Of a stretch of 62,664 nt of DNA, positions 598 through 62,664 are shown piece after piece. This DNA is from a virus. Within the stretch, counting starts at the first letter, position 1. Each line of letters starts with the position of its first letter. The notes below the pieces were generated by a model that saw only the letters and a program-made list of their open reading frames with translations, searched no databases and was not told the DNA's origin. Location of the stretch: positions 1-62,664 of the IMG/VR virus record IMGVR_UViG_3300034134_000009; one strand, given 5' to 3'. The translations under genes were made by a program, and so were the position numbers.

Positions 598-640
598 GGC
601 GAGGGCGGTGCACCGTTGGGTGTGCCGCCCTTCGCTTTTG
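598..640 (+). terminator. putative intrinsic terminator after the globin gene
   Basis: Imperfect GC-rich hairpin gggcgagggcggtgcac / gtgccgcccttcgc followed by tttt. Confidence 0.5.
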
Positions 641-659
641 GCGCACACGGCCCGTGACA

Positions 660-20877: not shown

Positions 20878-20914
20878 CCCTTGACAGTTAACCGCTTCCG
20901 GTTAGTATTGGGGT
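20878..20914 (+). promoter_or_regulatory. operator-promoter copy P2 (leaderless)
   Basis: cccTTGACAgttaaccgcttccggtTAGTATtggggtATG. The ATG of 20915 starts 6 nt after the -10. Confidence 0.7.
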
Positions 20915-21175
20915 ATGGACATGACCCCGCAGGCAACCCCGATGTACGCCGCCGGCGTCACCGGCAACCGCACCGGAAACGTGTACACCGTCATCGGATG
21001 GGTCCCCTACCACGACAACGCCCCCGACATCGGCCTCGCGCCCGTCATCGTCCCCATCGACGGCGGAGCGCTCGCCCAGAAATACCTCCCCGACAACGGC
21101 ATCGCCCGACTGTTCCCCAGCGTCGAAGAGGCCCGCGCCGTCGCGAGCGCCGCGAAGCCCCGCCAGAACGCCTGA
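20915..21175 (+). CDS. hypothetical protein (leaderless first gene of the antisense cassette)
   Basis: 86-aa ORF starting at the predicted transcription start. Confidence 0.55.
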   Translation: MDMTPQATPMYAAGVTGNRTGNVYTVIGWVPYHDNAPDIGLAPVIVPIDGGALAQKYLPDNGIARLFPSVEEARAVASAAKPRQNA

Positions 21176-21176
21176 C

Positions 21177-21791
21177 ATGAGCAGCGACCCCCAATTCGAA
21201 GTCCGACCTGTCGACTACGCCACGGTCAAGAAGGTGCTCGCAGAGGCCCACTACATCGGCAAGCCCGGATCCACGTCCGTCCGTCTCGGCCTCTACCTCG
21301 CTGGCGAACTGGCCGGCGTCATCACTTACGGGACCATCCCCCTGCCTAACGCCCGCGCGATCTGCGGGCCGGAGCACGAGCGGCAAGTCCTGGAGCTAAC
21401 CCGACTTGCCCTTTACGACTGGGCACCCCGCAACAGTGAATCTCGGCTCATCGCCGCGTCTTACCAACATGTTCTTGTCGCTCGACCCCAAACCCGGATC
21501 CTGATCTCCTACGCGGACGGGAGACAGGGTCATGTCGGCACCATCTACCAGGCATCCAACTGGCTTTACACCGGCGCAAGCACGGGGGACGTGGTGTACT
21601 GCTGCGACGACGGGCGCACATTACACCCTCGCACTGTCGGGTGGAAAGATCTTCCGCCGGGCCGATGGGTGCCGGCGGGAAACAAGTACCGCTATGTAAC
21701 TTTCATCGGCACACCCACAGACCGGCGGGTGCTCCGGAAGCGCCTACGCTGGCCGGTCCTTCCTGCCCCAAAGTTGTCCGAAGTCAAGTAG
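21177..21791 (+). CDS. GNAT-fold, Mom-like putative DNA-modification acyltransferase
   Basis: 'AHYIGKPGS', 'GLYLAGELAGVITYG', 'LELTRLAL', 'NSESRLI', 'ILISYADGRQGHVGTIYQASNWLYTG'. Family assignment is from memory, not searched. Confidence 0.55.
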   Translation: MSSDPQFEVRPVDYATVKKVLAEAHYIGKPGSTSVRLGLYLAGELAGVITYGTIPLPNARAICGPEHERQVLELTRLALYDWAPRNSESRLIAASYQHVLVARPQTRILISYADGRQGHVGTIYQASNWLYTGASTGDVVYCCDDGRTLHPRTVGWKDLPPGRWVPAGNKYRYVTFIGTPTDRRVLRKRLRWPVLPAPKLSEVK

Positions 21792-31111: not shown

Positions 31112-31387
31112 TCAGCCCTTCAGTAGGGAACGGGGATCGACAGGTGCATCAGGGTTGAACCGGTACAACCGGCGCACAGCCCTACCCTGCACCGCCTCAC
31201 GGTCCTCCCAGCGCCACAACAACAGGCCCTCATTAGCCCACCGCTGCAGCATCAGCGAGATGGTCGGACGCTGCACACCTGTGCGCTTACTCAGGTCATA
31301 CGCGTACCACTCACGTGTGAGCGAGGGATCCTCGCTGGTCATGGTGGTCAGTACCAGAGTGCTGGTGCGCGTCTTGCGTATCGGCAT
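31112..31387 (-). CDS. winged-helix transcriptional regulator (candidate repressor)
   Basis: 91 aa. 'YAYDLSKRTGVQRPTISLMLQRWANEGLLLWRWE' resembles a PadR/MarR-type wHTH. First gene after the AT-rich region. Confidence 0.55.
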   Translation of the reverse strand: MPIRKTRTSTLVLTTMTSEDPSLTREWYAYDLSKRTGVQRPTISLMLQRWANEGLLLWRWEDREAVQGRAVRRLYRFNPDAPVDPRSLLKG

Positions 31388-48194: not shown

Positions 48195-48425
48195 TCAGGA
48201 CGGAATGTCAGTGGATGCGTAGTCGTCGGCGTCTTCGATGTGCCACCCGGACGACACGTAGTTCGCCACGAAGTCCTCGGTTACCGAGTCGGCGAGGTCG
48301 TTCCGCTGCTGCGGGGTCATCGCCTCCCACTCGTCGCGGTCAACGGTGAACGTCTCGTCCCGGCTGTCAGCGAACGCCTCGACGTGCAGGTTGATGACGA
48401 CCGGGGGACGGCTGGGACTGGTCAT
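48195..48425 (-). CDS. hypothetical acidic protein (first gene downstream of P3)
   Basis: ATG with gagg RBS (residue 22 of track ORF 48195..48488). Confidence 0.5.
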   Translation of the reverse strand: MTSPSRPPVVINLHVEAFADSRDETFTVDRDEWEAMTPQQRNDLADSVTEDFVANYVSSGWHIEDADDYASTDIPS

Positions 48426-48485: not shown

Positions 48486-48523
48486 CACCCCAATACTAAC
48501 CGGATCCGGTTAGGTGTCAAGAG
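48486..48523 (-). promoter_or_regulatory. operator-promoter copy P3
   Basis: Minus sense ctcTTGACAcctaaccggatccggtTAGTATtggggt. The leader can form an 11-bp stem ggggtgtacgc/gcgtacacccc (48450..48491). Confidence 0.65.
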
Positions 48524-48539
48524 TGGCGGACGTGCCACC

Positions 48540-49436
48540 TCACGCCAACGGAACCTCCTGATCATCCCAAGGGGCCCGCTCACCCGACGGCGGACGATCC
48601 CCGCCCAGCGCCTCCCGGGCACTCGACGTCCGTGCAGGCTTACCCGCCGCCTGCTTCGCGTCAGGATTCGCCACTGCCGCCGCAGGCGCAGCGGCGGCAG
48701 GTGCCGCGTAGCGCCCGTCCTGCCCAATGCGGGTCAGCATCTCCCCCAGCCCCTCCGCATCACCCAGTTCGTTACTCGCAACCTCGGCCCGTCGCTCCGG
48801 CCCGAGTTCCTTCCAGATCTGCTGCAGCCGGGCCGGCGAAGTGCCCTCCGCCGTGATCTCCCGCGCATACGACGCCGCCGACCGGAACGACTCACCCCGC
48901 TCCACATCCACCGACTCCGGATCCGGCTCGTTCATCGACGCGAACACCGTCTCGAGCACGAACACCCGCAACGCGATCGACTGGGCCTTGCTCGTCGCCT
49001 TGTCGCCGGTGTCCTGAGCCTCCCCCGCAGCCTGGCCCTCAAAGAAGTCGCCGCGGGGGCCGTACACGCGGAACGTCACCAGGGCCGTGCACTCCCGCAT
49101 CACCGACCCCTTAGCCGACTTCGTGTCCCGGTACGTGGTCTCCGTGCGGAACGGAACCACCATCACCCCGTGACGCCGCAACGCCGGCCCCACGTAGCCG
49201 TACACCTCGTTGATGCCCCGGAACCGGATCCGGCCGCCACCGCCCCCGCCGAACGACGGCATGTCGCTGAGCTTCGCGATGGACTTGACGTCACGCATCA
49301 CCCGGCCCCACGCCTCGAACACGGGCACGTCCGCCACCTCGGCGATCGGCGCGTCGTACACCACCTCCGGCAACTCCGCCGCCGCGGGCTGCCCGCCCTG
49401 CCGGTCCCCGCCACTGCGGCTCAGCTCCCGCCCCAT
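48540..49436 (-). CDS. ERF-family single-strand annealing protein
   Basis: 'FRGINEVYGYVGPALRRHGV' and 'GEAQDTGDKATSKAQSIALR' fit the ERF pattern. Adjacent to the exonuclease gene. Confidence 0.7.
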   Translation of the reverse strand: MGRELSRSGGDRQGGQPAAAELPEVVYDAPIAEVADVPVFEAWGRVMRDVKSIAKLSDMPSFGGGGGGRIRFRGINEVYGYVGPALRRHGVMVVPFRTETTYRDTKSAKGSVMRECTALVTFRVYGPRGDFFEGQAAGEAQDTGDKATSKAQSIALRVFVLETVFASMNEPDPESVDVERGESFRSAASYAREITAEGTSPARLQQIWKELGPERRAEVASNELGDAEGLGEMLTRIGQDGRYAAPAAAAPAAAVANPDAKQAAGKPARTSSAREALGGDRPPSGERAPWDDQEVPLA

Positions 49437-49840
49437 CAGTTGCCCCCCTGTCGGTCCCGGATTGCCTGTGCCTGCTGCCGTTCCTCATCCGTGAGCGGCG
49501 TCGGGTTGCCCATCGACTCGTGGATGCGCTCGTAGACGCCGCTCAGAATCAGATCAACGGAGACGTGTCTCCACGAGAGCGGGCCGACTAGGCGGGTGAG
49601 CCCCACGATGCGGCTGACCTGCCCGTCACACTTCATCGACCAGCGACCACCCAGCGCCCGTTCCTGCGCGCGGCGCAGGTCATCCCACGCCAGTTCGAGT
49701 AGCCAGCGCAGAGCAGAGTCCGGCGTCGCGAACTCGTCATCCTCCGCAGCTGCAGACACTGCCGCGTCGACGTACTCGGAGACCGGCCGGGTGCGCCACC
49801 GGTGGGCCAGATCGGCTTCCGTCAATTCCACGTACTCCAT
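49436..49840 (-). CDS. hypothetical protein
   Basis: 134-aa ORF between the exonuclease and ERF genes. Confidence 0.5.
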   Translation of the reverse strand: MEYVELTEADLAHRWRTRPVSEYVDAAVSAAAEDDEFATPDSALRWLLELAWDDLRRAQERALGGRWSMKCDGQVSRIVGLTRLVGPLSWRHVSVDLILSGVYERIHESMGNPTPLTDEERQQAQAIRDRQGGN

Positions 49841-50856
49841 CAGGCCCGCCCCTTCCCCAGGTTCAACTTCCGTGTCGTCTTCGCCGTCACACAGTCCTCA
49901 TACGCGGCACGGTGCCGCTCGAACAGCTTCTCCAGATCCACACCCGGGGCCTGGTTCACCTCGTCGTACGAGAACAGCTTGTTGCCGGCCCCGTCCACCG
50001 CGACCTCGTTGCCGCCCAGCAGCGACAGCAGCCCAGCCCGGGCGTTCTTCCGGGCCCGCTCGTGAACGCCCCGCTCCCGGGACGCATCCCGGTACTCGCG
50101 GATCAGGTCATACGCGTTCAGGGACTGTTCGATGTCGAGGCGGGCGATGCCGTCCCGGTTCGGGTGGAGCAGGCCGTACAGGTCGCCGTCGAACTCGCCG
50201 CCCTGATCCATCGACTCCGGCGCCACCCCGGCTTGCATGTGATCCGTCCAGAACGCGTCGACTTCCCGGGCGACCTCGGCGAACGGCTCGGGTTCGTCTT
50301 CCGGCCGGACCGTGAACTGTCGGTAGTCGTAATCGCCGACAATCACCGCGACGTGCGCATGATCGTCGCCGGTCACCCGCAACTGGTGAGCGACCTGCGC
50401 CAGGACCGGATCGGGGAGCATGCGCCGCCACCGGCCCGCCATGAAGTAGTTCGTCTTCTTGCACTCGAGCAGGCACCGGTTACGGCCACCCTCAGGGCAC
50501 TCCACCACCCGCCGGTCCACCGTGGCCCGCAGCCACGGCTTGTCGACGTTCTCGACCAGACCCATGCGCCGGGTCACCGCCCGGTTCCGCATCGTCCACT
50601 CAGCGGCCACGAACCCTTCCCAGTGGTGGCCGGCCCGCAGCTGAATGGAGGTGCGTTCCTCGATGTCGGGTTCGGGTAGCTCGCCGCGCTTGTCGTACCA
50701 GACCCGCAGCGGCGACGGGTACAGGCCGAGGATGCGGGGGACGTCGGACGAGCCGATACCAGCACGGCGGGCGGCGAGCCATTCGTCGCGGGGTGCGTCG
50801 GCGGGTAGGACGAGTTGGGCGGCGGCGGTTGCGCGGCGCCGGGTTGGTGCGGTCAC
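49840..50856 (-). CDS. YqaJ/lambda-Exo-like PD-(D/E)XK exonuclease
   Basis: 'GIGSSDVPRILG', 'LLECKK', 'HVAVIVGD'. Confidence 0.75.
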   Translation of the reverse strand: MTAPTRRRATAAAQLVLPADAPRDEWLAARRAGIGSSDVPRILGLYPSPLRVWYDKRGELPEPDIEERTSIQLRAGHHWEGFVAAEWTMRNRAVTRRMGLVENVDKPWLRATVDRRVVECPEGGRNRCLLECKKTNYFMAGRWRRMLPDPVLAQVAHQLRVTGDDHAHVAVIVGDYDYRQFTVRPEDEPEPFAEVAREVDAFWTDHMQAGVAPESMDQGGEFDGDLYGLLHPNRDGIARLDIEQSLNAYDLIREYRDASRERGVHERARKNARAGLLSLLGGNEVAVDGAGNKLFSYDEVNQAPGVDLEKLFERHRAAYEDCVTAKTTRKLNLGKGRA

Positions 50857-51185
50857 AGGTAGTCCTCTCTTACGTCTGCCCAGGTGAATGTGGCGGGGCG
50901 GCTGTTGTTGCGGCGGCCCACCATGATCAGCCAGCCTGCCCAGTTGGAGCGTGCCCGCTCGAACTCTTCCCGCACCTCAAGGTGCACGGGAAGGCCGTAC
51001 GTGACGTTCTGGTGGATGGCCTGCTCGTATGCGCACGCGGCCTGCCAGAACGCCAGCTGCGCCCGGTACAGGCCCTGCTGCCATCCGTTCATCTCCGACA
51101 CGAGTTGGCTGCGGATGCCGTGGCCGCGCTGGTTGGCGACCTCGGCGGGTCGCCGGTCCCGGATGTCGCGCCGCCGACTGTTCAT
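50853..51185 (-). CDS. hypothetical protein
   Basis: 110-aa ORF, ATGA-coupled. Confidence 0.5.
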   Translation of the reverse strand: MNSRRRDIRDRRPAEVANQRGHGIRSQLVSEMNGWQQGLYRAQLAFWQAACAYEQAIHQNVTYGLPVHLEVREEFERARSNWAGWLIMVGRRNNSRPATFTWADVREDYL

Positions 51186-51580
51186 GGCTGGGGGTCGCGT
51201 CCGTGACGCTCAGCGTCGGCGATCATGAAGATTGCTGCGGCGCGTGCCTCCCCAGCGAAGCGGATCAGATCGGCCAGGTCGGCGATGACGAATTCGGGAT
51301 GGGTGTGTCGCAGGTCGGCCAGGTTGGTGGCCCGCTTAGCAACCTCACGGAGCCGTTCCTGGGCGCGGAGGATGACAGCTTCGTCGTCGTGGATGGATGC
51401 GATGTGGCTTCCGCAGCGGGTTACGTGCCGCCTGTTGGATGTGTACCAGCGCTCCGCGTTGCTGGTGACGTACAGGAACGCGGTGGCCTGGGTGACGTAC
51501 ATGATCGAGCCGAGTTTGCGGGTGTCGCCGGTGGCGATGATCTCAACGACCCGATCGCCTTCTTTCAGCGGGGCGGTCAT
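51182..51580 (-). CDS. hypothetical protein
   Basis: ATG with gaaagggga RBS. 132 aa (C-terminal part of track ORF 51182..52195). Confidence 0.5.
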   Translation of the reverse strand: MTAPLKEGDRVVEIIATGDTRKLGSIMYVTQATAFLYVTSNAERWYTSNRRHVTRCGSHIASIHDDEAVILRAQERLREVAKRATNLADLRHTHPEFVIADLADLIRFAGEARAAAIFMIADAERHGRDPQP

Positions 51581-51630
51581 CGGTGTCCCCTTTCGTCGCT
51601 GGTAGCGGCCGGTCAGGGTGATCGGCTCAG

Positions 51631-51714
51631 TATCGGCGGCGGGAGTCGAACCCGCTCGGTAGGGATGCCGCCCCGCCGTTCCCGCCCTCTGGCATGAGAG
51701 TGTCTGCCGCCGAA
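51631..51714 (-). ncRNA. tRNA-like element B (canonical T-arm and acceptor end; body does not fold as a cloverleaf by hand)
   Basis: Minus strand ...gcgggTTCGACTcccgc-cgccgat-a. 5' ttcggcg pairs 6/7. Contains ctCATgc but a G-rich unpaired middle. Confidence 0.3.
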
Positions 51715-51804
51715 CCCCACGTGTTTTTGACCTGGTAGCCAGTACACCCCGACACCCAAGATGGGCCGTAAGACCAGCGGTCCGCTCAACGTGGATTGCT
51801 CCCG

Positions 51805-51846
51805 TATCCCGGCCAGGGCTCGAACCTGGCAGCAGCCGTGCGGGAT
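51805..51846 (-). ncRNA. tRNA minihelix-like element A (acceptor plus T-arm only)
   Basis: Minus strand atcccgc-acggctgctg-ccaggTTCGAGCcctgg-ccgggat-a. 6-bp acceptor-like stem stacked on a canonical T-arm. No D or anticodon arms. Confidence 0.3.
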
Positions 51847-51849
51847 GCG

Positions 51850-51882
51850 GTCGCCGCCCCGCCCCCTCGACAGGGCGGCGAC
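51850..51882 (-). terminator. hairpin after 51895..52254
   Basis: gtcgccgcc / ggcggcgac 9-bp stem with a 15-nt loop. No T-run. Confidence 0.35.
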
Positions 51883-51894
51883 CAGGGCGGTGCG

Positions 51895-52254
51895 TCAGGC
51901 AGGCCGGGGCCCGAAGATGTCCACGACCTGCTCGCACAGGTCGTCCATGCTGTTGTTGGCATCGAACAGGCCGAACGCGTCCCAGCTGGTGATGTCGAGC
52001 AGCTCCGTTGCCCGGTCGGAGACGCACACGCTGTCTGGGCTCTGCGCCGCCGTCACAACGTCGGTGACTTCCCCGCCGTGCGCGGGCCAGCCCTCCGACC
52101 AGTTCGGCCGGTCGCCGGAGAGGAGAACCGTCCATCCCGCGAAGCAGGCGGCGGTGCCGCAGTGGTCCTTCCGCAAGTAGATTGTCTGGTTCCATTCCTT
52201 CGGGTGGGCGGTGATGTGGTCGAGCACTCGGTACGCGAGTTCAGCATTCGGCAT
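51895..52254 (-). CDS. hypothetical protein
   Basis: 119-aa ORF. 'HCGTAACFAGW'. Confidence 0.55.
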   Translation of the reverse strand: MPNAELAYRVLDHITAHPKEWNQTIYLRKDHCGTAACFAGWTVLLSGDRPNWSEGWPAHGGEVTDVVTAAQSPDSVCVSDRATELLDITSWDAFGLFDANNSMDDLCEQVVDIFGPRPA

Positions 52255-52275
52255 GACGGTCGGTTCCTTTCCGAG

Positions 52276-52776
52276 TCAGCGGGTCAGTGAGCCAGGCAGG
52301 GCGTGATGGTCGGTGACGTCCCGGTCCGTGTGGTACCAGCCGGACGTCTCGTCGCTGCCCTCGGTGACGTATTCGATCGGCCGGGCGCACGGCCCGTTGT
52401 CGGTCCCCTGCGCGCAGACTGCGTTGTCGTGGAACTCCCGGTTGCAGGTGATGATCCCGTACGCTTCCGGGTCGAGTTTCCAGCGCACAGCCCGGTCCGG
52501 GCTCCCGCATGTCGGGCATCGGTCTTCGTTGCGGATGGCCTCAGCGATGACGTCGGCCGGGTCCAGCTGTAGGACCGCGCAGTATGTACGCAGGTCTTCG
52601 GAGATCGTGAACAGGGGCCGGGTTGAGGACGGGGTCAGCCGGCGGGACACGTTCTGTTCGTTGTAGGGACGGCCGAGCAGTCGCCCGACCCGGTTCGCGA
52701 GTTCACGGCCGCTTAGGGACTGAGCCTTCATCGCTTGTCGGATTGTCGCGGCGAGTCGAGCGGCTGCGCCGTGCAT
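52276..52776 (-). CDS. XRE-type HTH protein with Cys-rich C-terminal domain
   Basis: ATG with aaggagg RBS. 'QSLSGRELANRVGRLLGRPYNEQNVSR' HTH. 'CPTCGSP...CNREFHDNAVC'. Confidence 0.6.
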   Translation of the reverse strand: MHGAAARLAATIRQAMKAQSLSGRELANRVGRLLGRPYNEQNVSRRLTPSSTRPLFTISEDLRTYCAVLQLDPADVIAEAIRNEDRCPTCGSPDRAVRWKLDPEAYGIITCNREFHDNAVCAQGTDNGPCARPIEYVTEGSDETSGWYHTDRDVTDHHALPGSLTR

Positions 52777-52829
52777 GTCTCGCCTCCTTTCGCTGGTGGT
52801 TGGGTGTTCCGGGACGGTCCGGCCCGGGG

Positions 52830-53036
52830 CTACTTGACGAACAGTCCGGAGTGCGCGAAGTAGGGCCGCCCGTTGATCAGGGTCATGGCCTTGCCGGTCT
52901 GCCAGTGCGGCTCCGTCGGCTCGACGTCGGTGACCCGGATGTCGTCGTTCGGGTTCGCGCCGATGATGATGTCGCCGGCGACGACCTGTCCGGCGGTCTT
53001 GAAGGTGCTTTTGCGGGTGCGGTCCAGGATGTCCAT
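52830..53036 (-). CDS. hypothetical protein (leaderless from P4)
   Basis: 68-aa ORF whose ATG follows the -10 by 6 nt. Confidence 0.55.
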   Translation of the reverse strand: MDILDRTRKSTFKTAGQVVAGDIIIGANPNDDIRVTDVEPTEPHWQTGKAMTLINGRPYFAHSGLFVK

Positions 53037-53075
53037 ACCCCAATACTAACCGGTTCCGGTTAACTGTCAAGGGTT
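53037..53075 (-). promoter_or_regulatory. operator-promoter copy P4 (leaderless)
   Basis: Minus sense cccTTGACAgttaaccggaaccggtTAGTATtggggtATG. Confidence 0.7.
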
Positions 53076-53285
53076 TCAGGCACGGGATCTGCGGCGACCC
53101 GAACGAGCCGGCCGCGACACCTTCCGCACCGCCGACCAGCCCCCGATCGCCATCACCGCCACGACCGCCAAAACCACGGCCCGGGTCGGCAGCAGCGACG
53201 CCAACGCCACATCGAACACCAGCAACAGCACGACCAGCAGGGCCGAGGACTTCCGCGACGCCCTGCCACGCCGACGGCCCGCCAT
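53076..53285 (-). CDS. small membrane protein
   Basis: ATG at residue 26 of the track ORF (TGATG overlap). 'ALLVVLLLVFDVALASLL' and 'VVLAVVAVMAIGGW'. Confidence 0.4.
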   Translation of the reverse strand: MAGRRRGRASRKSSALLVVLLLVFDVALASLLPTRAVVLAVVAVMAIGGWSAVRKVSRPARSGRRRSRA

Positions 53286-53497
53286 CACGCCTTCTCCCAG
53301 CGCTCGTGCCAGCTGATGTGCCACACCGCCGCGTCCATGGCGGGCTCCATCGATAGCCATCGGCCACCGGGGTCAAGGTGAACGCACGCGAAACCGCCGT
53401 CACTGCAGGTGAGCTGGTAGCCCTCCATGTCGGGCGTCTCCTGAACGGTGACGACGGCGGACGCGTAGTCGCTGGTGACCTGGATCTGCGCGGTCAT
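53285..53497 (-). CDS. hypothetical protein
   Basis: ATG at residue 24 of the track ORF. ATGA overlap. Confidence 0.4.
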   Translation of the reverse strand: MTAQIQVTSDYASAVVTVQETPDMEGYQLTCSDGGFACVHLDPGGRWLSMEPAMDAAVWHISWHERWEKA

Positions 53498-53763
53498 GAC
53501 CGCGCCTCCGGGTTCGCCTCGAGCACTGCGGTCCCCTCGGCGGTCGGAACCCACTGCCGCTGCCACCGATCGCCGGGGGACTGCAGGCGCAGGAGGTCAG
53601 CGCTTTTCAGCGCTTGCACTTGGCGGCTGACGCTTCGCGGTCTGCCGCTGCCGCCCCTGGGGTGCGACCGGTCGCCTCGGCCACCCCAGGTCGACCGGTA
53701 GACGTCGCCGCGGGCGGCTTCGCGGAGGACGGCGAGTTGGGCGGGGGTCAGCTTGGTGGGCAT
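53494..53763 (-). CDS. putative winged-helix DNA-binding protein
   Basis: 89 aa. 'LTPAQLAVLREAARGDVYR' and 'RQVQALKSADLLRLQ'. Confidence 0.45.
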   Translation of the reverse strand: MPTKLTPAQLAVLREAARGDVYRSTWGGRGDRSHPRGGSGRPRSVSRQVQALKSADLLRLQSPGDRWQRQWVPTAEGTAVLEANPEARS

Positions 53764-53778
53764 CGCCTTGTCTCCTTG

Positions 53779-54024
53779 TCAGTTCGTGCGGGCCGGGCAC
53801 CAGGCCCACACGGTGGTCATCTGTACCGACGTCTCGCACAGCACGCACCATTCGGTGTGGCCGTCGGCGTTCATCGGGTCGTATTCGCGGCCCGTGCCGG
53901 CGTGGTCACAGAGGATCCATCCGGCCCCGGCGCAGGTGGTGCAGTCGTCGGTGTCGCAACCCAGGTCCCGGGTGTTCGGGGTGATTCCGAAGGCGTCGGG
54001 GGTTTTGGTCTGCGTCGTTGTCAT
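53779..54024 (-). CDS. Cys-rich hypothetical protein (leaderless from P5)
   Basis: 81 aa. 'CDTDDCTTCAGAGWILCDH...WCVLCE'. ATG 6 nt after the -10. Confidence 0.55.
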   Translation of the reverse strand: MTTTQTKTPDAFGITPNTRDLGCDTDDCTTCAGAGWILCDHAGTGREYDPMNADGHTEWCVLCETSVQMTTVWAWCPARTN

Positions 54025-54076
54025 ACCCCAATACTAACCGGTTCCGGTTAACTGTCAAGGGTGTCGAGTGTGACAA
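54025..54076 (-). promoter_or_regulatory. operator-promoter copy P5 (leaderless) with 18-bp upstream extension
   Basis: 54023..54076 is identical to 55683..55736 (54 bp), including gggtgtcgagtgtgacaa. Confidence 0.7.
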
Positions 54077-54118
54077 AAAGGGTGGGGCGGCCAGCGTCAC
54101 GCGCCGACCGCCCCACCC
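54075..54118 (-). terminator. intrinsic terminator after 54130..55641
   Basis: gggtggggcgg / ccgccccaccc 11-bp stem followed on the minus strand by ttttt. Confidence 0.7.
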
Positions 54119-54129
54119 CTGCCCGCAAC

Positions 54130-55641
54130 TCAGTACGGACCCGGCACCAGCCTCGCCCTGTCCCCGGCCCGCAACCGCGACCACAACGCATCCGCGTCGC
54201 CCACATCCACACCCGCCGCCGACAGGGTTTTCGTCGTCACCTCAGCGATGACCGCCCGCAGCAACGCCACCTCGTCCGCCGACAGCGTCAGACCCTCCTC
54301 GGCGGGCACCGCAGCCGACGCCGCGCGGAACGCCTCACTCGCCTTGCACGCCGCGCAGCTCACTTCCGCCGGTACCGGCGACCCCGACGTGTACGGGGTC
54401 CGCATGATGTCGATGTCGCACCCCGTCGGCAGGGACGGGTCGGTGTCAGGCCAGAAGTGCACAACCTCTTCATTGTCGTCCTCGGTGGACGCCGGGGTCG
54501 GCTTCGTGTGTGCCGGGTCGTTCGCGTACGCGCCGCACCGCTCGAACTCGTCGTCTCCGTTGTTCGCCGCGATCGCCGCCTTCACCTCGAGCGGCCGGTA
54601 CTCGAACTCATGCGGCAACCCGAACGAAACCGCCGTGCACGTCCCCTCCACGTCAGGATCGATGACACTGAGGCTCTCGTCCCGGCACTCCGGATCGAGA
54701 TCCCCGCTGTCAAGCCGGGCCTGCCGCATGTGCCCGACGTGCCGGCCATCCGTGCGCAGACACAGCAACGGGCGCTGACCCACCCGCAGACTGGGGGTTT
54801 CTGCCGGGGCCTGCTCCACCACACGCTTCTCCACCGATGCCTTCGCCGCGTCCCGGGACGACCAGCCCGACGAGATGATCTCACCGTTGCGGTGAACCAC
54901 CGCCCCGTCGGACCGCCACGCCACCGTGTACGTGTCCATGCCGACGCGAACTGACTCCCGGACCGAGCCTTCGTCCGTCCATGCCAGCTTCGGCGGGTTC
55001 GCGAGAGTGGCCTTGCGCCGCGCGATGGCGCTCTGGACGCGCCCGAGGTCCTCGAGCACCAGCCCGTACCAGCCCGGGGCCTTCGTCTCGAGCGTGGCCA
55101 CCGACGAAGAGATCAGCAGGACGGTCCGGCCGAGAGCGCCGACCTCCGACGCCTCCCGCTCGATCACGTCGAGGTGCTCCGCGATGGCCTCCGTCTGGGC
55201 TTCCGCCAGAGCGAACCGGCCAGTGTTGACGATCCAGAACGTGGCGTCGTCCTTCGCCTGGGTGAGAGTGCGCCGGTTGACCTCGATCCCGATCAGGCTG
55301 CCCGTCTGGGTGACCCGGTAGGCCCGGTATGGGGTGGGGCCGTAGGTGCGGATAATGACGGCCCCGGTCTCATGGTTGGTCCACTGGTTGTCGCCGGTCT
55401 TCGGGAAGGTGATCGCTCGCTTCGACATGTTGTGGTCTCCGTTCGGCTCGGCCTCCTCGGCGGGTGCCTCAGTGAAGGTGACGCCGTGCGGGTCGCGGTA
55501 GCGAACCCGCATGACCCGACCGCTTCCGCGCCACTTCACGTCGGCGTAGGTCGCGCCGGTGGCGATGACGTCGCCGATGGCGGTCTCGTTGCCCTCAACG
55601 GCCCATTCGGCGGTGATCGGGTTCTTCGGCGTCTTCGGCAT
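54130..55641 (-). CDS. large early hypothetical protein
   Basis: 503-aa ORF with ggaaagg RBS, the only gene between P6 and the terminator. Confidence 0.65.
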   Translation of the reverse strand: MPKTPKNPITAEWAVEGNETAIGDVIATGATYADVKWRGSGRVMRVRYRDPHGVTFTEAPAEEAEPNGDHNMSKRAITFPKTGDNQWTNHETGAVIIRTYGPTPYRAYRVTQTGSLIGIEVNRRTLTQAKDDATFWIVNTGRFALAEAQTEAIAEHLDVIEREASEVGALGRTVLLISSSVATLETKAPGWYGLVLEDLGRVQSAIARRKATLANPPKLAWTDEGSVRESVRVGMDTYTVAWRSDGAVVHRNGEIISSGWSSRDAAKASVEKRVVEQAPAETPSLRVGQRPLLCLRTDGRHVGHMRQARLDSGDLDPECRDESLSVIDPDVEGTCTAVSFGLPHEFEYRPLEVKAAIAANNGDDEFERCGAYANDPAHTKPTPASTEDDNEEVVHFWPDTDPSLPTGCDIDIMRTPYTSGSPVPAEVSCAACKASEAFRAASAAVPAEEGLTLSADEVALLRAVIAEVTTKTLSAAGVDVGDADALWSRLRAGDRARLVPGPY

Positions 55642-55684
55642 CGTGGTCTGCCTTTCCGGTGGGGTGCCTGTGTGGCTGGCTGAT

Positions 55685-55736
55685 ACCCCAATACTAACCG
55701 GTTCCGGTTAACTGTCAAGGGTGTCGAGTGTGACAA
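55685..55736 (-). promoter_or_regulatory. operator-promoter copy P6 with 18-bp upstream extension
   Basis: Identical to P5. Overlaps the last codons of 55708..56031. About 40-nt leader to 55641. Confidence 0.7.
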
Positions 55737-56031
55737 CCCCCGGCGAAGCGTTGTGCTCCGCCAACGCCCGCCGCACCGACGCCTCCGACACCCGCCGATG
55801 CCCCTGCAACACCCGACCCAGACTGTCCACCGACTTCGCCCCCCACGTCTTCTTCCGCCGCGACACCAACACCTCCTGATCCGCAAGCCGGCGAACCGTC
55901 GACGGCGACGCACCCAAAATCTTCGCGGCCTGACCCGTCGTCAACCACACCTCATCCTCCGAGAAATTTTCGCCAGGCTCCTCGCGAACATTTCCGCCCG
56001 TCACAGCCAACTCTTCGCTTCCGTTGCTCAT
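55708..56031 (-). CDS. HTH DNA-binding protein (MerR/excisionase-like)
   Basis: 107 aa. 'WLTTGQAAKILGASPSTVRRLADQ'. Divergent from the plus arm. Confidence 0.55.
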   Translation of the reverse strand: MSNGSEELAVTGGNVREEPGENFSEDEVWLTTGQAAKILGASPSTVRRLADQEVLVSRRKKTWGAKSVDSLGRVLQGHRRVSEASVRRALAEHNASPGVVTLDTLDS

Positions 56032-56098
56032 GTCTTCCGAACCTTTCGCTTCGCATCAGGTGTGCCAAGAGTACCGAACGTGTCGTACGCTGTCTCCC

Positions 56099-56965
56099 AT
56101 GAGTCTTCGCCGACTCGTTCGCCGCCTTCGTTTCGCGAAGCCTGCGAACGAAACCCAGACCTTCGCGAAACACCCGCCCACACCTTCGCCCAGCGAAGCG
56201 AAACTCTTCGCCCGCGAAGCCCGGGTAGTTTTCGCTGTCCTTTCGCTGTCCGCCGTCACCGCCTTCGCCATCCAGGCGTGGATGACGTTCGGCTTCGCGA
56301 AAGAAGTCTGGGGGATGCCCGTCGAACTGTGCTTCGCCCTGGTCTTCGCACTCGACGTCTTCGCCGTCATGTGGATGATCCTTTCGTACTTGCTTCGCAA
56401 CACCGGATGGCCACGCTTCATCGCCTTCGTCGTCTTTCTCTTCGCGATCGGCGCGCAAGTCCTCGCCGCTGAAATGTTCGGTGCCCACCGCGGCTGGTCC
56501 GAGGAAGTCCGCTGGTTCTCCGCTGTCCCGGCCCTTCTCCTGGCGCTGTCGCAGGAAGGTGTGATCCTGTGGCGCACCTACCGGAGCCGACGGATGCTCC
56601 GCACACAGCCGCCGGCCACTGTCGCGCCGCCGGCCGTAACGCGTGAACCCCGGAAGACCACCACCACCCCGCCTGTGCCGCCCGCCCCGCGCCCGCCGGC
56701 ACCCGCAGCAACTGCGGCCCCGGCTGGCGGGAAACGCGAAACCGCCAGAGCAGAACACGACAAGGTCGCCCAGCGTGTCATCGCAGGTCAGGTGACCAAA
56801 GAGCAGGCCGCAACCGACACCGGCAAAAGCATCCGAGCCGTCGAGCTGTGGATCGCCGACTACCGGAAACGTCACCCCGCCGGCCCGCAACTCGGCACAT
56901 TCCAGCTCCCCGCCCCGACCGTGAACCCGCAGGTGAACGGCACAGCCCGACAGGAGGTGAACTAA
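56099..56965 (+). CDS. DUF2637-like polytopic membrane protein
   Basis: Four TM segments ('VVFAVLSLSAVTAFAIQAW', 'LCFALVFALDVFAVMWMI', 'FIAFVVFLFAIGAQVLA', 'FSAVPALLLALS'), a Pro-rich linker and a C-terminal HTH-like segment. Start uncertain (the track ORF starts at 56024). Confidence 0.55.
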   Translation: MSLRRLVRRLRFAKPANETQTFAKHPPTPSPSEAKLFAREARVVFAVLSLSAVTAFAIQAWMTFGFAKEVWGMPVELCFALVFALDVFAVMWMILSYLLRNTGWPRFIAFVVFLFAIGAQVLAAEMFGAHRGWSEEVRWFSAVPALLLALSQEGVILWRTYRSRRMLRTQPPATVAPPAVTREPRKTTTTPPVPPAPRPPAPAATAAPAGGKRETARAEHDKVAQRVIAGQVTKEQAATDTGKSIRAVELWIADYRKRHPAGPQLGTFQLPAPTVNPQVNGTARQEVN

Positions 56966-56968
56966 GGC

Positions 56969-59212
56969 ATGGCCCGCACCGACGTCAACGTGCGCAGGGA
57001 AACCAACCCCTCCACCCACGACGACGAGAAACGCTCCAGGAAATTCCGTGGACCGCTGTTCGTCGGGCTGCTCGTCGTGCCCGCGTTTGGCCTGCTCCTG
57101 CGCTTCATCATCTTCTGGGCACCCGAAATGCTGTGGCTCGTCGCCGGGCTCTCCCTCACCACCGGATTCATCTACGCGTCCGCCGCCGTCGCCATCGGAT
57201 ACAAGGTCAGCAAGCGGGTTCCGCTGGTCATCTGGCACGTCGCCGCCACCGGGTTCCTGTTCGGCGGGGCCCTGTACATCACAACCGTGGTGCGCTGGCC
57301 TGCGGAAACAGCGCCCTGGTATCACCGGCTACTCGCGGTCGTCAACTGGCCGGCGTGGTGGGTCATCGTCCACCTGTTCGGCGCGATCATCGTCGGCGGG
57401 TCGTGGCTGCTGTACCGCATCGACGCGTTCCGGGCCGCGACCGGCGCCGACGAGTTCAGCGGCTCCGGCCTCGACAAGCTGCTCAAGGTGCCGCTGGGAA
57501 TGAAGGTCCGCGACAACACCATCACCGCCGACGAGTTCGCCATCGAAGCCGAGATCGCCCACCCCGGCATCCCCGTCGCCCAAGTTCAAGGCGTGCTGCA
57601 GCCACTCGTCGAGCAGGCCGGCGCAATTCGCGGCCGTTCCACGATCGTGCCTGGCGACGTCGGCGGGAAGTCCCAACTTCGCCTCGTCATGAAGGACCCC
57701 CTCGATGAGTGGAAAACCTTCCCCGGACTTTCGCACCCCGGCGAAAGCTTCGCGTACCCCATCCGCACCGCGTACTACGTCGCCGGGAAGAACGGCCAGC
57801 CGCTCCCCCAGTGGTATTCCTTCGCGCAGACCCCGAACTCTTCGGTGCTGAGACCTTCGCGGCTCGCCCCGAACTTTTCGGCCCCGAACGATGCAAGCTT
57901 CGGCCGGCAGGGCGCAACCCGCGCGGGGAAGAGTGGCGACAACGCCATCGAGATCGCCGAAGTTGCTTCGCGCTGCGACGCCGGCCTGTTCCTCGTGAAC
58001 ACGGCGAAACTTTTGCAGGACATCGGCTGGGCGTTGGACTTCGCGGTCGCCGCCGCCGACACGAAACCGAAAGCTTCGGTCCTGTTCGAGGCGGTGCGAA
58101 GGATCGGCGAGTACCGGTCGAACCAGATGGGTCACCCGAAGTGGCAGGGCAGGCACCGCACATGGTCACCACTCACCTACGCCGAACTCGGGTTCATGGC
58201 GATCGTCGTCGAGGTTGACGAAGGTGACCAGGTGTTGAACTCGGCGACGGCGACGTGGCTCGCCACGAAGGGTCTGTCGCTGGGGATTTTCCTGAGCGTC
58301 ATGATTTCCCGCGCCGCCACCGACGGCATGGCCTCGACGTTGCGGTCTGCGGTCACGCAGTGGAAGGCGTTCGGGGCTGGGCAGGCGTACGACGGCGGGT
58401 TCGTGCTGTCCGACGAGACGATCGCCGCGGGCGCCGACGTGGGTTCCCTGTCGACCCGGTTCCCCGGTTCCCACTACCTCGACAAGGCGCAGGGCGTCGA
58501 CGAGACGATGTATCCGCAGCTCGCCCGGTCGTATAAGACGGAACGGGACTTCAGTGACCTGCGCCGCGCGGTCGAGGCAGCGCGGGCCGCGTTCACCCCG
58601 CCGGTGTTGACGCCGGGGGAGATCGAGGCGGCGGGCGGTGCGGAGACGCTGCGCATGTTGTCGCCGCAGACGCTGCTCGCAGCGTTTGACCAGGAAGACA
58701 CCGGGCCGGCACCTGCCGGCACGGTGACCAGCACAGAAAGGACGACCGTGGAAACTGCGATCCTGTCGACGGCCGGGGACCGGCCGGACGACACCGGTGA
58801 CCTCGAGGTGGATGCGCTGCTCGCGAAGCCCCGCGCTGACCTCAGTGACCTTGAGAAGGAGTACGGGCCGCTTCCGGCCCCGGGTGAGTCGCTTCCGGAC
58901 CGTTCGAACCCGGACCTGCCGTCGCTGGAACTGGCTTCCGGTGATGACCGGCCGTCGGTGTCGCCGGACGAGTTGACGGGGGAGGCGAACGCGGCGCTGA
59001 TCCGGATGGCTCAGCGCGGCGTGACCCGGTTCGGCAACAAGGAACTCATGGATGAGATGCGGGTGGACCCGACACCGACGCAGATGAGTCGCTGGCTGAA
59101 GGGCCTGTGTGATGACGGGAAGCATGTGGCACCGCCGGGGGTGACGGTGGAGCGGGAGCCGGGCCGGCAGGGTCGGTACGTGTTGGTGTGGCTGGCCGCT
59201 GAGGGGGTGTGA
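56969..59212 (+). CDS. FtsK/SpoIIIE (TraB-like) membrane DNA translocase
   Basis: 747 aa. N-terminal TM helices. Walker A 'GRQGATRAGKSG'. Walker B 'MAIVVEVDEGD'. Confidence 0.8.
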   Translation: MARTDVNVRRETNPSTHDDEKRSRKFRGPLFVGLLVVPAFGLLLRFIIFWAPEMLWLVAGLSLTTGFIYASAAVAIGYKVSKRVPLVIWHVAATGFLFGGALYITTVVRWPAETAPWYHRLLAVVNWPAWWVIVHLFGAIIVGGSWLLYRIDAFRAATGADEFSGSGLDKLLKVPLGMKVRDNTITADEFAIEAEIAHPGIPVAQVQGVLQPLVEQAGAIRGRSTIVPGDVGGKSQLRLVMKDPLDEWKTFPGLSHPGESFAYPIRTAYYVAGKNGQPLPQWYSFAQTPNSSVLRPSRLAPNFSAPNDASFGRQGATRAGKSGDNAIEIAEVASRCDAGLFLVNTAKLLQDIGWALDFAVAAADTKPKASVLFEAVRRIGEYRSNQMGHPKWQGRHRTWSPLTYAELGFMAIVVEVDEGDQVLNSATATWLATKGLSLGIFLSVMISRAATDGMASTLRSAVTQWKAFGAGQAYDGGFVLSDETIAAGADVGSLSTRFPGSHYLDKAQGVDETMYPQLARSYKTERDFSDLRRAVEAARAAFTPPVLTPGEIEAAGGAETLRMLSPQTLLAAFDQEDTGPAPAGTVTSTERTTVETAILSTAGDRPDDTGDLEVDALLAKPRADLSDLEKEYGPLPAPGESLPDRSNPDLPSLELASGDDRPSVSPDELTGEANAALIRMAQRGVTRFGNKELMDEMRVDPTPTQMSRWLKGLCDDGKHVAPPGVTVEREPGRQGRYVLVWLAAEGV

Positions 59213-62481: not shown

Positions 62482-62664
62482 ATGACCGAATCAGACACCG
62501 ACCGGCCCGAGCCCGGCCCGCCGCCGCTACGCAAACCTGCGTGCGAAGCCTGCGGACGACCGTTCCCAACCGTCGCCGACCACCTACGCGCCTCCATCGA
62601 TTTCGTCGACAACGCCGGCCCGACGGTCGGCGACGACGTCGTGATCCAGTTCTATAGCCGGCTG
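62482..62664 (+). CDS. globin-domain protein, N-terminal part (runs off the window; continues at 128)
   Basis: ATG with acggagg RBS 8 nt upstream. The same frame is open back to an ATG at 62281, which overlaps the MazG stop, so the true start may be earlier. 'CEACGRPF' Cys pair. Confidence 0.6.
   Translation, partial: MTESDTDRPEPGPPPLRKPACEACGRPFPTVADHLRASIDFVDNAGPTVGDDVVIQFYSRL
62538..62664. repeat. 127-bp terminal direct repeat, identical to 1..127
   Basis: See feature 1..127. Confidence 0.9.

Follow-up and report, generated by a model that had tools for sequence, protein, structure and literature searches.

The 62,664-nucleotide (nt) virus sequence analysed here (IMG/VR record IMGVR_UViG_3300034134_000009, taken over its full length and called the window below) carries six dispersed copies of a promoter in which a palindrome fills the space between the -35 and -10 boxes. 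The question raised by this arrangement is what the palindrome does and which protein recognizes it. The answer that is considered probable is that the six copies are SigA promoters provided with an operator in their spacer, and that a single phage-encoded helix-turn-helix (HTH) dimer shuts all of them, the most likely binder being a divergent protein of the Cro/C1 type.

In transcription sense, all six copies (P1 to P6, Table 1) read C-TTGACA-N2-TAACCG-N4-CGGTTA-GT(A/G)T, with a perfect TTGACA -35 box, a spacer of 16 nt and a -10 box that is either TAGTAT or TAGTGT. The last TA of the palindrome is in every copy the first TA of the -10 hexamer. Three copies share the exact 37-mer CCCTTGACAGTTAACCGGAACCGGTTAGTATTGGGGT on the minus strand, at 55721..55685, 54061..54025 and 53073..53037, and the -35 boxes of the three variant copies begin at 48520 (minus strand), 20881 (plus strand) and 663 (plus strand). 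All six share an unchanged core, TAACCG-N4-CGGTTA, and in P1 and P2 variation is seen at positions 7 and 10 of the 16-mer. P4 and P5 are identical over 41 bp, and P5 and P6 over 54 bp (54023-54076 = 55683-55736). This motif had been described in a first-pass annotation made from the sequence alone. The motif scans locate all six copies where that annotation had placed them, and they recover the 16-nt distance between the TTGACA and TANNNT hexamers in 6/6 copies, the 54-bp identity of P5 and P6, and the ATG codons that had been reported 6 nt after the -10 hexamer at 20915, 53036 and 54024. A small correction concerns the coordinates of the three identical copies, whose ends had been placed rightly and whose starts had been set 1-2 nt too far out.

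The motif is more frequent than expected. A search with the 28-mer, allowing up to 3 mismatches, matches five of the six sites, against 0.00 expected from 100 shuffles. At the same tolerance the palindrome TAACCGGNNCCGGTTA has 10 matches in the genome against 2.0 expected, with 3 mismatches in four of them and 0-2 in the remaining six, which are the promoter sites. When the whole genome is scanned for TTGACA (up to 1 mismatch)-N16-18-TANNNT, only these six are returned, for a Markov expectation of about 2, and they are predicted to be the only strong promoters of the sigma-70/SigA type in the 62.5-kb genome. At P2, P4 and P5 the ATG begins at the 7th nt past the -10 box. This layout fits leaderless transcripts, the ATG lying at the predicted start with no room for a Shine-Dalgarno sequence. 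An additional upstream element of 8 nt, (T)GACAC(C/T)C, abuts the -35 box (for example at 54066-54059, 55726-55719 and 655-662), and the C that adjoins TTGACA is invariant in 36/36 sites from 14 genomes (the window and 13 relatives). This element may be an UP-like element or the site of a second protein.

A scan of related phages had been proposed in the annotation, and it was carried out on 14 related stretches of up to 22 kb each. The same frame, (GACAC[C/T])C-TTGACA-N2-[16-bp dyad TA...TA]-NNNT, is found in 14/14 of them at 2-4 copies per 10-20 kb, and the palindrome is thus conserved among the relatives. The spacer measures 16 nt at nearly all of their sites and 18 nt at a few; in L031 the frame is shifted, with a TTGCGC -35 box and an 18-nt spacer. 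The first promoter copy always stands at the end of a gene encoding a protein with an HTH_17 domain, and several copies stand after terminators. The ATG at the 7th nt past the -10 box recurs at the homologous promoters of L010, L019, L023, L026, L028 and L031, which lends indirect support to transcripts predicted to start 6-8 nt beyond that box. Exact degenerate motif scans of viral, genome and metagenome contig collections gave no match. The relatives L001-L006, collected by means of the large terminase subunit (TerL), were rejected as a comparison set: they are short, distant and without the motif.

Four operator classes occupy this conserved frame. Class A, TAACC-N6-GGTTA, is found in the window and in L009, L011, L013, L014, L019, L021 and L029; class B, TATCC-N6-GGATA, in L010, L026, L028 and L030; class C, TACCGC-N4-GCGGTA, in L023; and class D, TAACGC-N4-GCGTTA, in L027 and L031. 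The symmetry of the palindrome was tested on 36 aligned sites with 500 shuffles. The computed proportion of complementary arm cells is 94.3%, against 80.6% in the shuffles, of which none (0/500) is as high, and double-sided changes number 28 where 8.5 are expected. Compensatory change is seen at half-site positions 3, 5 and 6, that is at three of the seven arm positions, and slid registers are only 22-44% complementary. Free variation is seen at the 2 nt that separate the -35 box from the dyad, in contrast to the arms. On these figures the palindrome is a selected dyad whose twofold symmetry has been kept through compensatory change. Such a dyad is probably the site of a dimeric, symmetric DNA-binding protein that is probably encoded by the phage. 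Indeed, L026 (class B) and L023 (class C) are 73% identical in a 747-amino-acid (aa) protein and yet differ in operator class, and this rapid class switching argues for a fast-evolving phage partner rather than a host factor. Two other readings of the palindrome were rejected. An RNA hairpin is not credible, as the palindrome lies upstream of its own transcript start, P1 and P5 already follow terminators, and no hairpin can form with a loop of 2 nt. A restriction site (CCGG or ACCGGT) does not account for the other operator classes, which lack such sites.

The mechanism proposed from these observations is as follows. The host RNA polymerase, with a SigA/sigma-70 type factor, would fire six strong promoters of non-structural units, three of which begin at the ATG. 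Left unaided, these promoters should be strong, given their perfect -35 and good -10 boxes. A dimeric phage-encoded HTH protein would bind the 16-bp dyad TAACCG-N4-CGGTTA and, once bound, would occupy the spacer together with the beginning of the -10 box, so that all six promoters would be shut together. From the predicted strength of the unaided promoter and from the position that the protein would take on it, we infer that repression by occlusion is the most economical reading. The result would be a one-regulator circuit for the shut-off or timing of early genes and, if the Cro/C1-like protein made from P4 is the binder, negative feedback would be expected. That the palindrome is a regulatory operator, as the annotation had supposed, is supported by the SigA hexamers and their spacing, the compensatory dyad, the recurring layout with the ATG at +1 and the non-structural nature of the targets.

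Four candidate repressors had been put forward at the outset. Two of them, 52276-52776 and 55708-56031, turn out to be universal in the relatives and represent the only two DNA-binding families, Cro/C1-like and HTH_17, that are universal in the early region. The third, 53494-53763, has an orthologue in no relative and was rejected as a general binder. For the fourth, a PadR-like protein (31112-31387), no relative was found in IMG/VR, and the loci of the relatives do not reach that region.

The Cro/C1-like protein 52276-52776 is the leading candidate, tentatively, and the site predicted to be its target is TAACCGGAACCGGTTA. Its orthologue is present in 12/12 genomes whose sequence covers that part of the early region. 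Sub-threshold matches to HTH_31 are seen in 5/11 orthologues (best E 0.0033) and to HTH_26 in one (E 0.0015), and there is a weak match to phrog_4583, annotated as 'transcriptional repressor' (E 6e-4). No significant match to the family profile was obtained in the PDB. The recognition helix contains VWVSRR in all 3 class-B genomes that carry the gene, and Q or M is found there in all class A and D genomes. Moreover, no other real protein is as well conserved between L026 and L028, both of class B. The HTH_17 protein comes second as a candidate and is judged unlikely; the remaining weight falls on another phage protein outside the available stretches, or on a host factor.

Several observations weigh against the proposed mechanism or against this choice of binder. 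The 16-nt spacer is 1 nt below the optimum, so that an activating role is possible. The Cro/C1-like protein has no Pfam match above threshold, and the single-sequence AlphaFold model of 52276-52776 is unusable, with a mean confidence (pLDDT) of 38.7. Its helix in L014 (class A) is almost the same as in L031 (class D), and the two class-D genomes, which have identical operators, differ in both candidate proteins, the Cro/C1-like helices included. As for the HTH_17 protein, L021 (class A) and L027 (class D) have the same recognition helix, and the helices of L014 (class A) and L028 (class B) are nearly identical. The ratio of same-class to different-class identity is 1.08 for the Cro/C1-like protein and 0.98 for the HTH_17 protein, with controls at about 1.0, and a nearest-neighbour comparison does not separate the two. 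Neither candidate tracks the operator class cleanly, and the binder could be encoded outside the 22-kb stretches of the relatives.

The alternative that survives best, itself unlikely, is that the HTH_17 protein binds the operator, either as a repressor or as a MerR-style activator acting from the spacer; it would be made first, from a promoter of its own just upstream of P6. In every relative, the first operator-promoter directly follows the HTH_17 gene and often overlaps it. In the window, P6 overlaps the 3' end of this gene: the TAA stop codon provides the first three bases of the operator, and the codons of the C-terminus, DTLD(S/T) followed by the stop, lie in the upstream element, the -35 box and the operator (55708-55725; also in L009, L019 and L027). 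The protein scores 32.8 bits with Pfam HTH_17, above the cut-off of 27, and 22.7 with the MerR HTH model, below the cut-off of 28.2; the profile matches Pukovnik Xis, P2 Cox, RacA and BldC in the PDB. The recognition helices are very different in the closest pair of different class (LKEVRT in L026, VAAARR in L023), and ASVRRR is common to L010 and L030, both of class B. Against this stand the helices shared across classes, reported above, and the occurrence of three unrelated helices within class B.

A dyad placed in the spacer is a hallmark of MerR promoters, which have a spacer of 19-20 bp and a regulator that dimerises via a long C-terminal coiled coil and activates by distorting the DNA. 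The promoters of the window resemble them by the dyad between -35 and -10 and by the MerR-superfamily winged HTH of the candidate. However, the spacer is here only 16 nt long, and no Pfam domain is found C-terminal of the HTH_17 region (residues 29-92) of the 107-aa protein, in which no MerR effector or coiled coil was detected after the wing. With a spacer of this length, these are not MerR-type promoters. That the HTH_17 protein would bind the spacer dyad as a dimer, a minimal switch of the MerR kind that lacks the dimerisation helix of MerR, with specificity set partly by the wing and with at least four orthogonal classes, is given a low probability. If true, promoters would here be controlled in a way that is new for the HTH_17 fold, and a natural set of orthogonal switches would be available for high-GC Gram-positive bacteria.

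A more natural target for the HTH_17 protein is found beside its gene. The pentamers TTCGC/GCGAA, counted over 55950-56450, reach 21 in 300 bp against 1.2 expected, the genome mean being 3.9 per kb. This dense array spans the divergent intergenic region and reaches into the 5' ends of the genes for the HTH_17 protein and for a 288-aa protein, and similar arrays occupy the same place in L009, L010, L013, L027 and L030. Pukovnik Xis, P2 Cox and BldC bind arrays of direct repeats, and the TTCGC array may be the binding array of this Xis/Cox-like protein. Mycobacteriophage D29 is a lytic actinophage whose small MerR-like protein gp36, a homologue of the HTH_17 protein, represses phage genes and binds GC-rich direct repeats (PMC12266134). 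gp36 compares better with the HTH_17 protein on the TTCGC array than with a regulator of the six operators, and this counts against the HTH_17 protein as their binder.

A host transcription factor could also bind the dyad, the phage having borrowed a host operator in order to sense the state of its host. This possibility, which is regarded as improbable, would agree with the retention of TAACC-N6-GGTTA across many relatives whose proteins are only 40-60% identical, and with the absence of clean co-variation between the operator class and either phage candidate. It is at odds with the four operator classes found in a single clade, including the switch between the two genomes that are 73% identical in the neighbouring 747-aa protein. 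Furthermore, the 26-nt promoter pattern (four operator positions free) is absent from the genomes of 185,579 species, taken at one genome per species, in which the bare 16-bp dyad was not searched separately.

Still less probable is that the six sites are operators of a lysogeny (immunity) repressor in a temperate phage, as in lambda or in mycobacteriophage BPs. The layout of BPs is comparable, with multiple dispersed operator-promoters under one repressor (PMC4557955). However, Pfam scans of about 100 open reading frames (ORFs) of the window revealed no integrase, recombinase or partition (ParA) gene, and the 747-aa protein has no relative in the reference genomes of the same 185,579 species, so that no prophage copies were found. 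INPHARED contains no close match: TerL and the major capsid protein reach only 28-30% identity with their counterparts from Gordonia, Arthrobacter and Mycobacterium phages. From this combination of missing integration and partition genes, missing relatives in reference genomes and distant similarity to actinophages, the phage is probably virulent and its host an actinobacterium. As no integrase was found, a timing or shut-off circuit of a virulent phage is more likely than the regulon of a lysogeny repressor. Finally, the suggestion that the palindrome is no operator at all, and that the six copies are recent duplications of one cassette with incidental symmetry, fits the identity of P4, P5 and P6 over 41-54 bp, as recent duplication or gene conversion would, and can practically be discarded: it is contradicted by the symmetry kept through compensatory changes in 14 other genomes, by the perfect palindrome of P3 amid different flanks, and by the free variation of the 2 nt next to arms that do not vary.

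The proposed circuit of SigA promoters under one HTH dimer can be compared with well-established systems. At the OR and OL regions of lambdoid phages (lambda, 434, P22), the dimeric HTH proteins Cro and CI bind 14-18 bp dyads that overlie the -35/-10 region of strong early promoters; related phages differ in the specificity of operator and protein, and the Cro-type protein shuts down the promoter that makes it. The window would follow the same operator-in-promoter logic, with a Cro/C1-like candidate predicted to be made from a regulated promoter. It differs by having one dyad per promoter instead of tandem cooperative sites, six dispersed promoters instead of two, a fixed frame that shares a TA with the -10 box, a probable actinobacterial host and several predicted leaderless mRNAs, and no CI/lysogeny module was found in it. 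The repressor gp33 of mycobacteriophage BPs binds five regions and controls four promoters through 12-bp palindromes; immunity in BPs, a temperate phage, depends on integration, gp33 is tetrameric, and the full site consists of the palindrome and a variable second half-site (PMC4557955). BPs is likewise an actinophage with a palindromic core site. In the window, the sites are instead simple 16-bp dyads confined to the spacer, and no sequence similarity to any INPHARED phage was found. The stoperators of Cluster A mycobacteriophages are asymmetric sites of 13-14 bp, bound by a monomer, oriented with transcription and located mostly in transcribed regions, where they stop elongation (PMC6550527, PMC9283540). 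They share with the present sites the many dispersed copies of one sequence that co-evolves with its regulator among related phages. The sites described here are in contrast symmetric and found only inside promoters, and they are not stoperators.

The operator-inside-promoter logic of early phage control is thus already known, and the present case confirms known principles and overturns none. The novelty resides in the conservation of the cassette throughout the clade and in the four co-varying operator classes. A regulatory map becomes available for a large clade known from metagenomes only, with six consensus promoters, one shared operator, early genes that are predicted to be leaderless, and terminator-promoter junctions. 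Four natural operator classes in one fixed frame lead to specific predictions for simple binding assays, and the cognate proteins, if identified, would provide orthogonal repressor/promoter pairs for actinobacterial genetics.

Nearly all genes from 56031 down to 5474 lie on the minus strand, in the order early, replication, lysis, packaging and virion, and a divergent plus-strand arm runs from 56099, across the assembly junction, to about 4510. All six copies face non-structural genes, as had been noticed at first: the gene of a 503-aa protein, small early proteins, recombination and replication functions, a Mom-like protein and the second half of the divergent arm. The P2 operon is set within the virion block, where it is flanked by the genes for the capsid protease and the major capsid protein and runs on the strand opposite to theirs. 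Strong predicted terminators precede both P1 and P5, which would therefore each start a separate unit; P1, after a terminator of -33 kcal/mol, restarts the plus arm. The plus arm also has a different putative promoter in the divergent intergenic region, nearly identical in the closest relatives (L009 526-556, L011 and L029), which would yield a leaderless mRNA for the 288-aa membrane/HTH protein (56099-56965, plus strand). The HTH_17 gene presumably has its own promoter in the same region. The coordinates of these features are collected in Table 1.

Table 1. Operator-promoters, candidate regulator genes, transcription units and predicted terminators of the window.
Feature	Position	Strand	Description
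P1	660..700	+	-35 box 663-668; operator TAACCGCATTCGGTTA 671-686; -10 box TAGTGT 685-690; leader of ~40 nt predicted, then 739-999 and downstream plus-strand genes
P2	20878..20917	+	-35 box 20881-20886; operator TAACCGCTTCCGGTTA 20889-20904; -10 box 20903-20908; ATG 20915 (predicted leaderless)
P3	48486..48523	-	-35 box 48520-48515; fully palindromic operator TAACCGGATCCGGTTA 48512-48497; -10 box 48498-48493; leader of ~60 nt predicted
P4	53034..53074	-	-35 box 53070-53065; operator 53062-53047; -10 box 53048-53043; ATG 53036 (predicted leaderless)
P5	54022..54076	-	upstream block TTGTCACACTCGACACCC; -35 box 54058-54053; operator 54050-54035; -10 box 54036-54031; ATG 54024 (predicted leaderless)
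P6	55683..55736	-	same 54 bp as P5; -35 box 55718-55713; operator 55710-55695; -10 box 55696-55691; leader of ~48 nt predicted
Cro/C1 (XRE)-like HTH protein	52276..52776	-	candidate regulator, 166 aa, divergent, Cys-rich C-terminal part; transcribed from P4 (predicted)
HTH_17 protein	55708..56031	-	candidate regulator, 107 aa, Xis/Cox/BldC-like, MerR-superfamily winged helix
P6 unit		-	503-aa gene 54130-55641; ended by predicted terminator 54072..54123
Intrinsic terminator (predicted)	54072..54123	-	-44 kcal/mol, z -5.6, then UUUUU; ends the P6 unit, just upstream of P5
P5 unit		-	four small genes, the first being the 81-aa Cys-rich gene 53779-54024 (predicted leaderless)
P4 unit		-	68-aa gene 52830-53036 (predicted leaderless), Cro/C1-like gene, recombination genes
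P3 unit		-	DUF7167 gene 48195-48425 and replication genes
P2 unit	20915..21791	+	86-aa gene 20915-21175; Mom-like DNA-modification gene 21177-21791 (PF25680 Mom, E 1.6e-38)
Intrinsic terminator (predicted)	598..641	+	-33 kcal/mol, z -4.3, with U tract; just upstream of P1
Divergent intergenic region	56032..56098	.	plus-arm promoter GTGCCA-N18-TACGCT-N7-ATG (predicted leaderless), ATG at 56099

The window itself is a complete siphovirus-like actinophage genome assembled from a metagenome, and it matches the ENA metagenome contig ERZ27253106:k141_778806. Its first 127 bp are repeated directly at its end (1-127 = 62538-62664), which shows that the assembly is circular and that 62,537 bp of it are unique; the arm on the plus strand consequently runs from 62.5 kb on into 1-4.5 kb. 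It encodes a tape measure protein, a major capsid protein, a portal, the large terminase subunit and a capsid protease, together with a RecE-like exonuclease, an Erf-like annealing protein, a primase/helicase and a sliding clamp. The GC content is 68%, and no tRNAs were found in the window. In INPHARED, no match to 48-56.5 kb was obtained by megablast, and none to the HTH_17 protein or to the 747-aa protein by tblastn. The HTH_17 and 503-aa proteins have one distant homologue each, on the short Logan contigs L009 and L010.

The 747-aa protein (56969-59212, plus strand) contains a Walker A motif (GATRAGKSGD) and, in its N-terminal part, hydrophobic segments. It has no match in Pfam and may be FtsK/TraB-like. 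Its 58 homologues are all metagenomic, many of them on contigs of 57-72 kb, and none comes from INPHARED or from the 185,579 reference genomes. This gene is the hallmark of a sizeable clade of uncultured phages, with at least 58 relatives and no cultured member.

Some minor observations concern the leaders and the base composition. A motif at the start of the leader, GTAAGGCAAG, is found in the 5' untranslated regions of several relatives (L011 at ~5600, L014 at ~5550, L019 at ~4460 and L026 at ~8480), and another leader motif, GTGTACGCAACG, is common to P3 of the window (48492-48475) and to L011_1081. The segment 30000-32000 has a GC content of 62.8% against 68% for the genome and contains small ORFs, including the PadR/MarR-like winged-helix gene 31112-31387 (minus strand); it may be recently acquired DNA.

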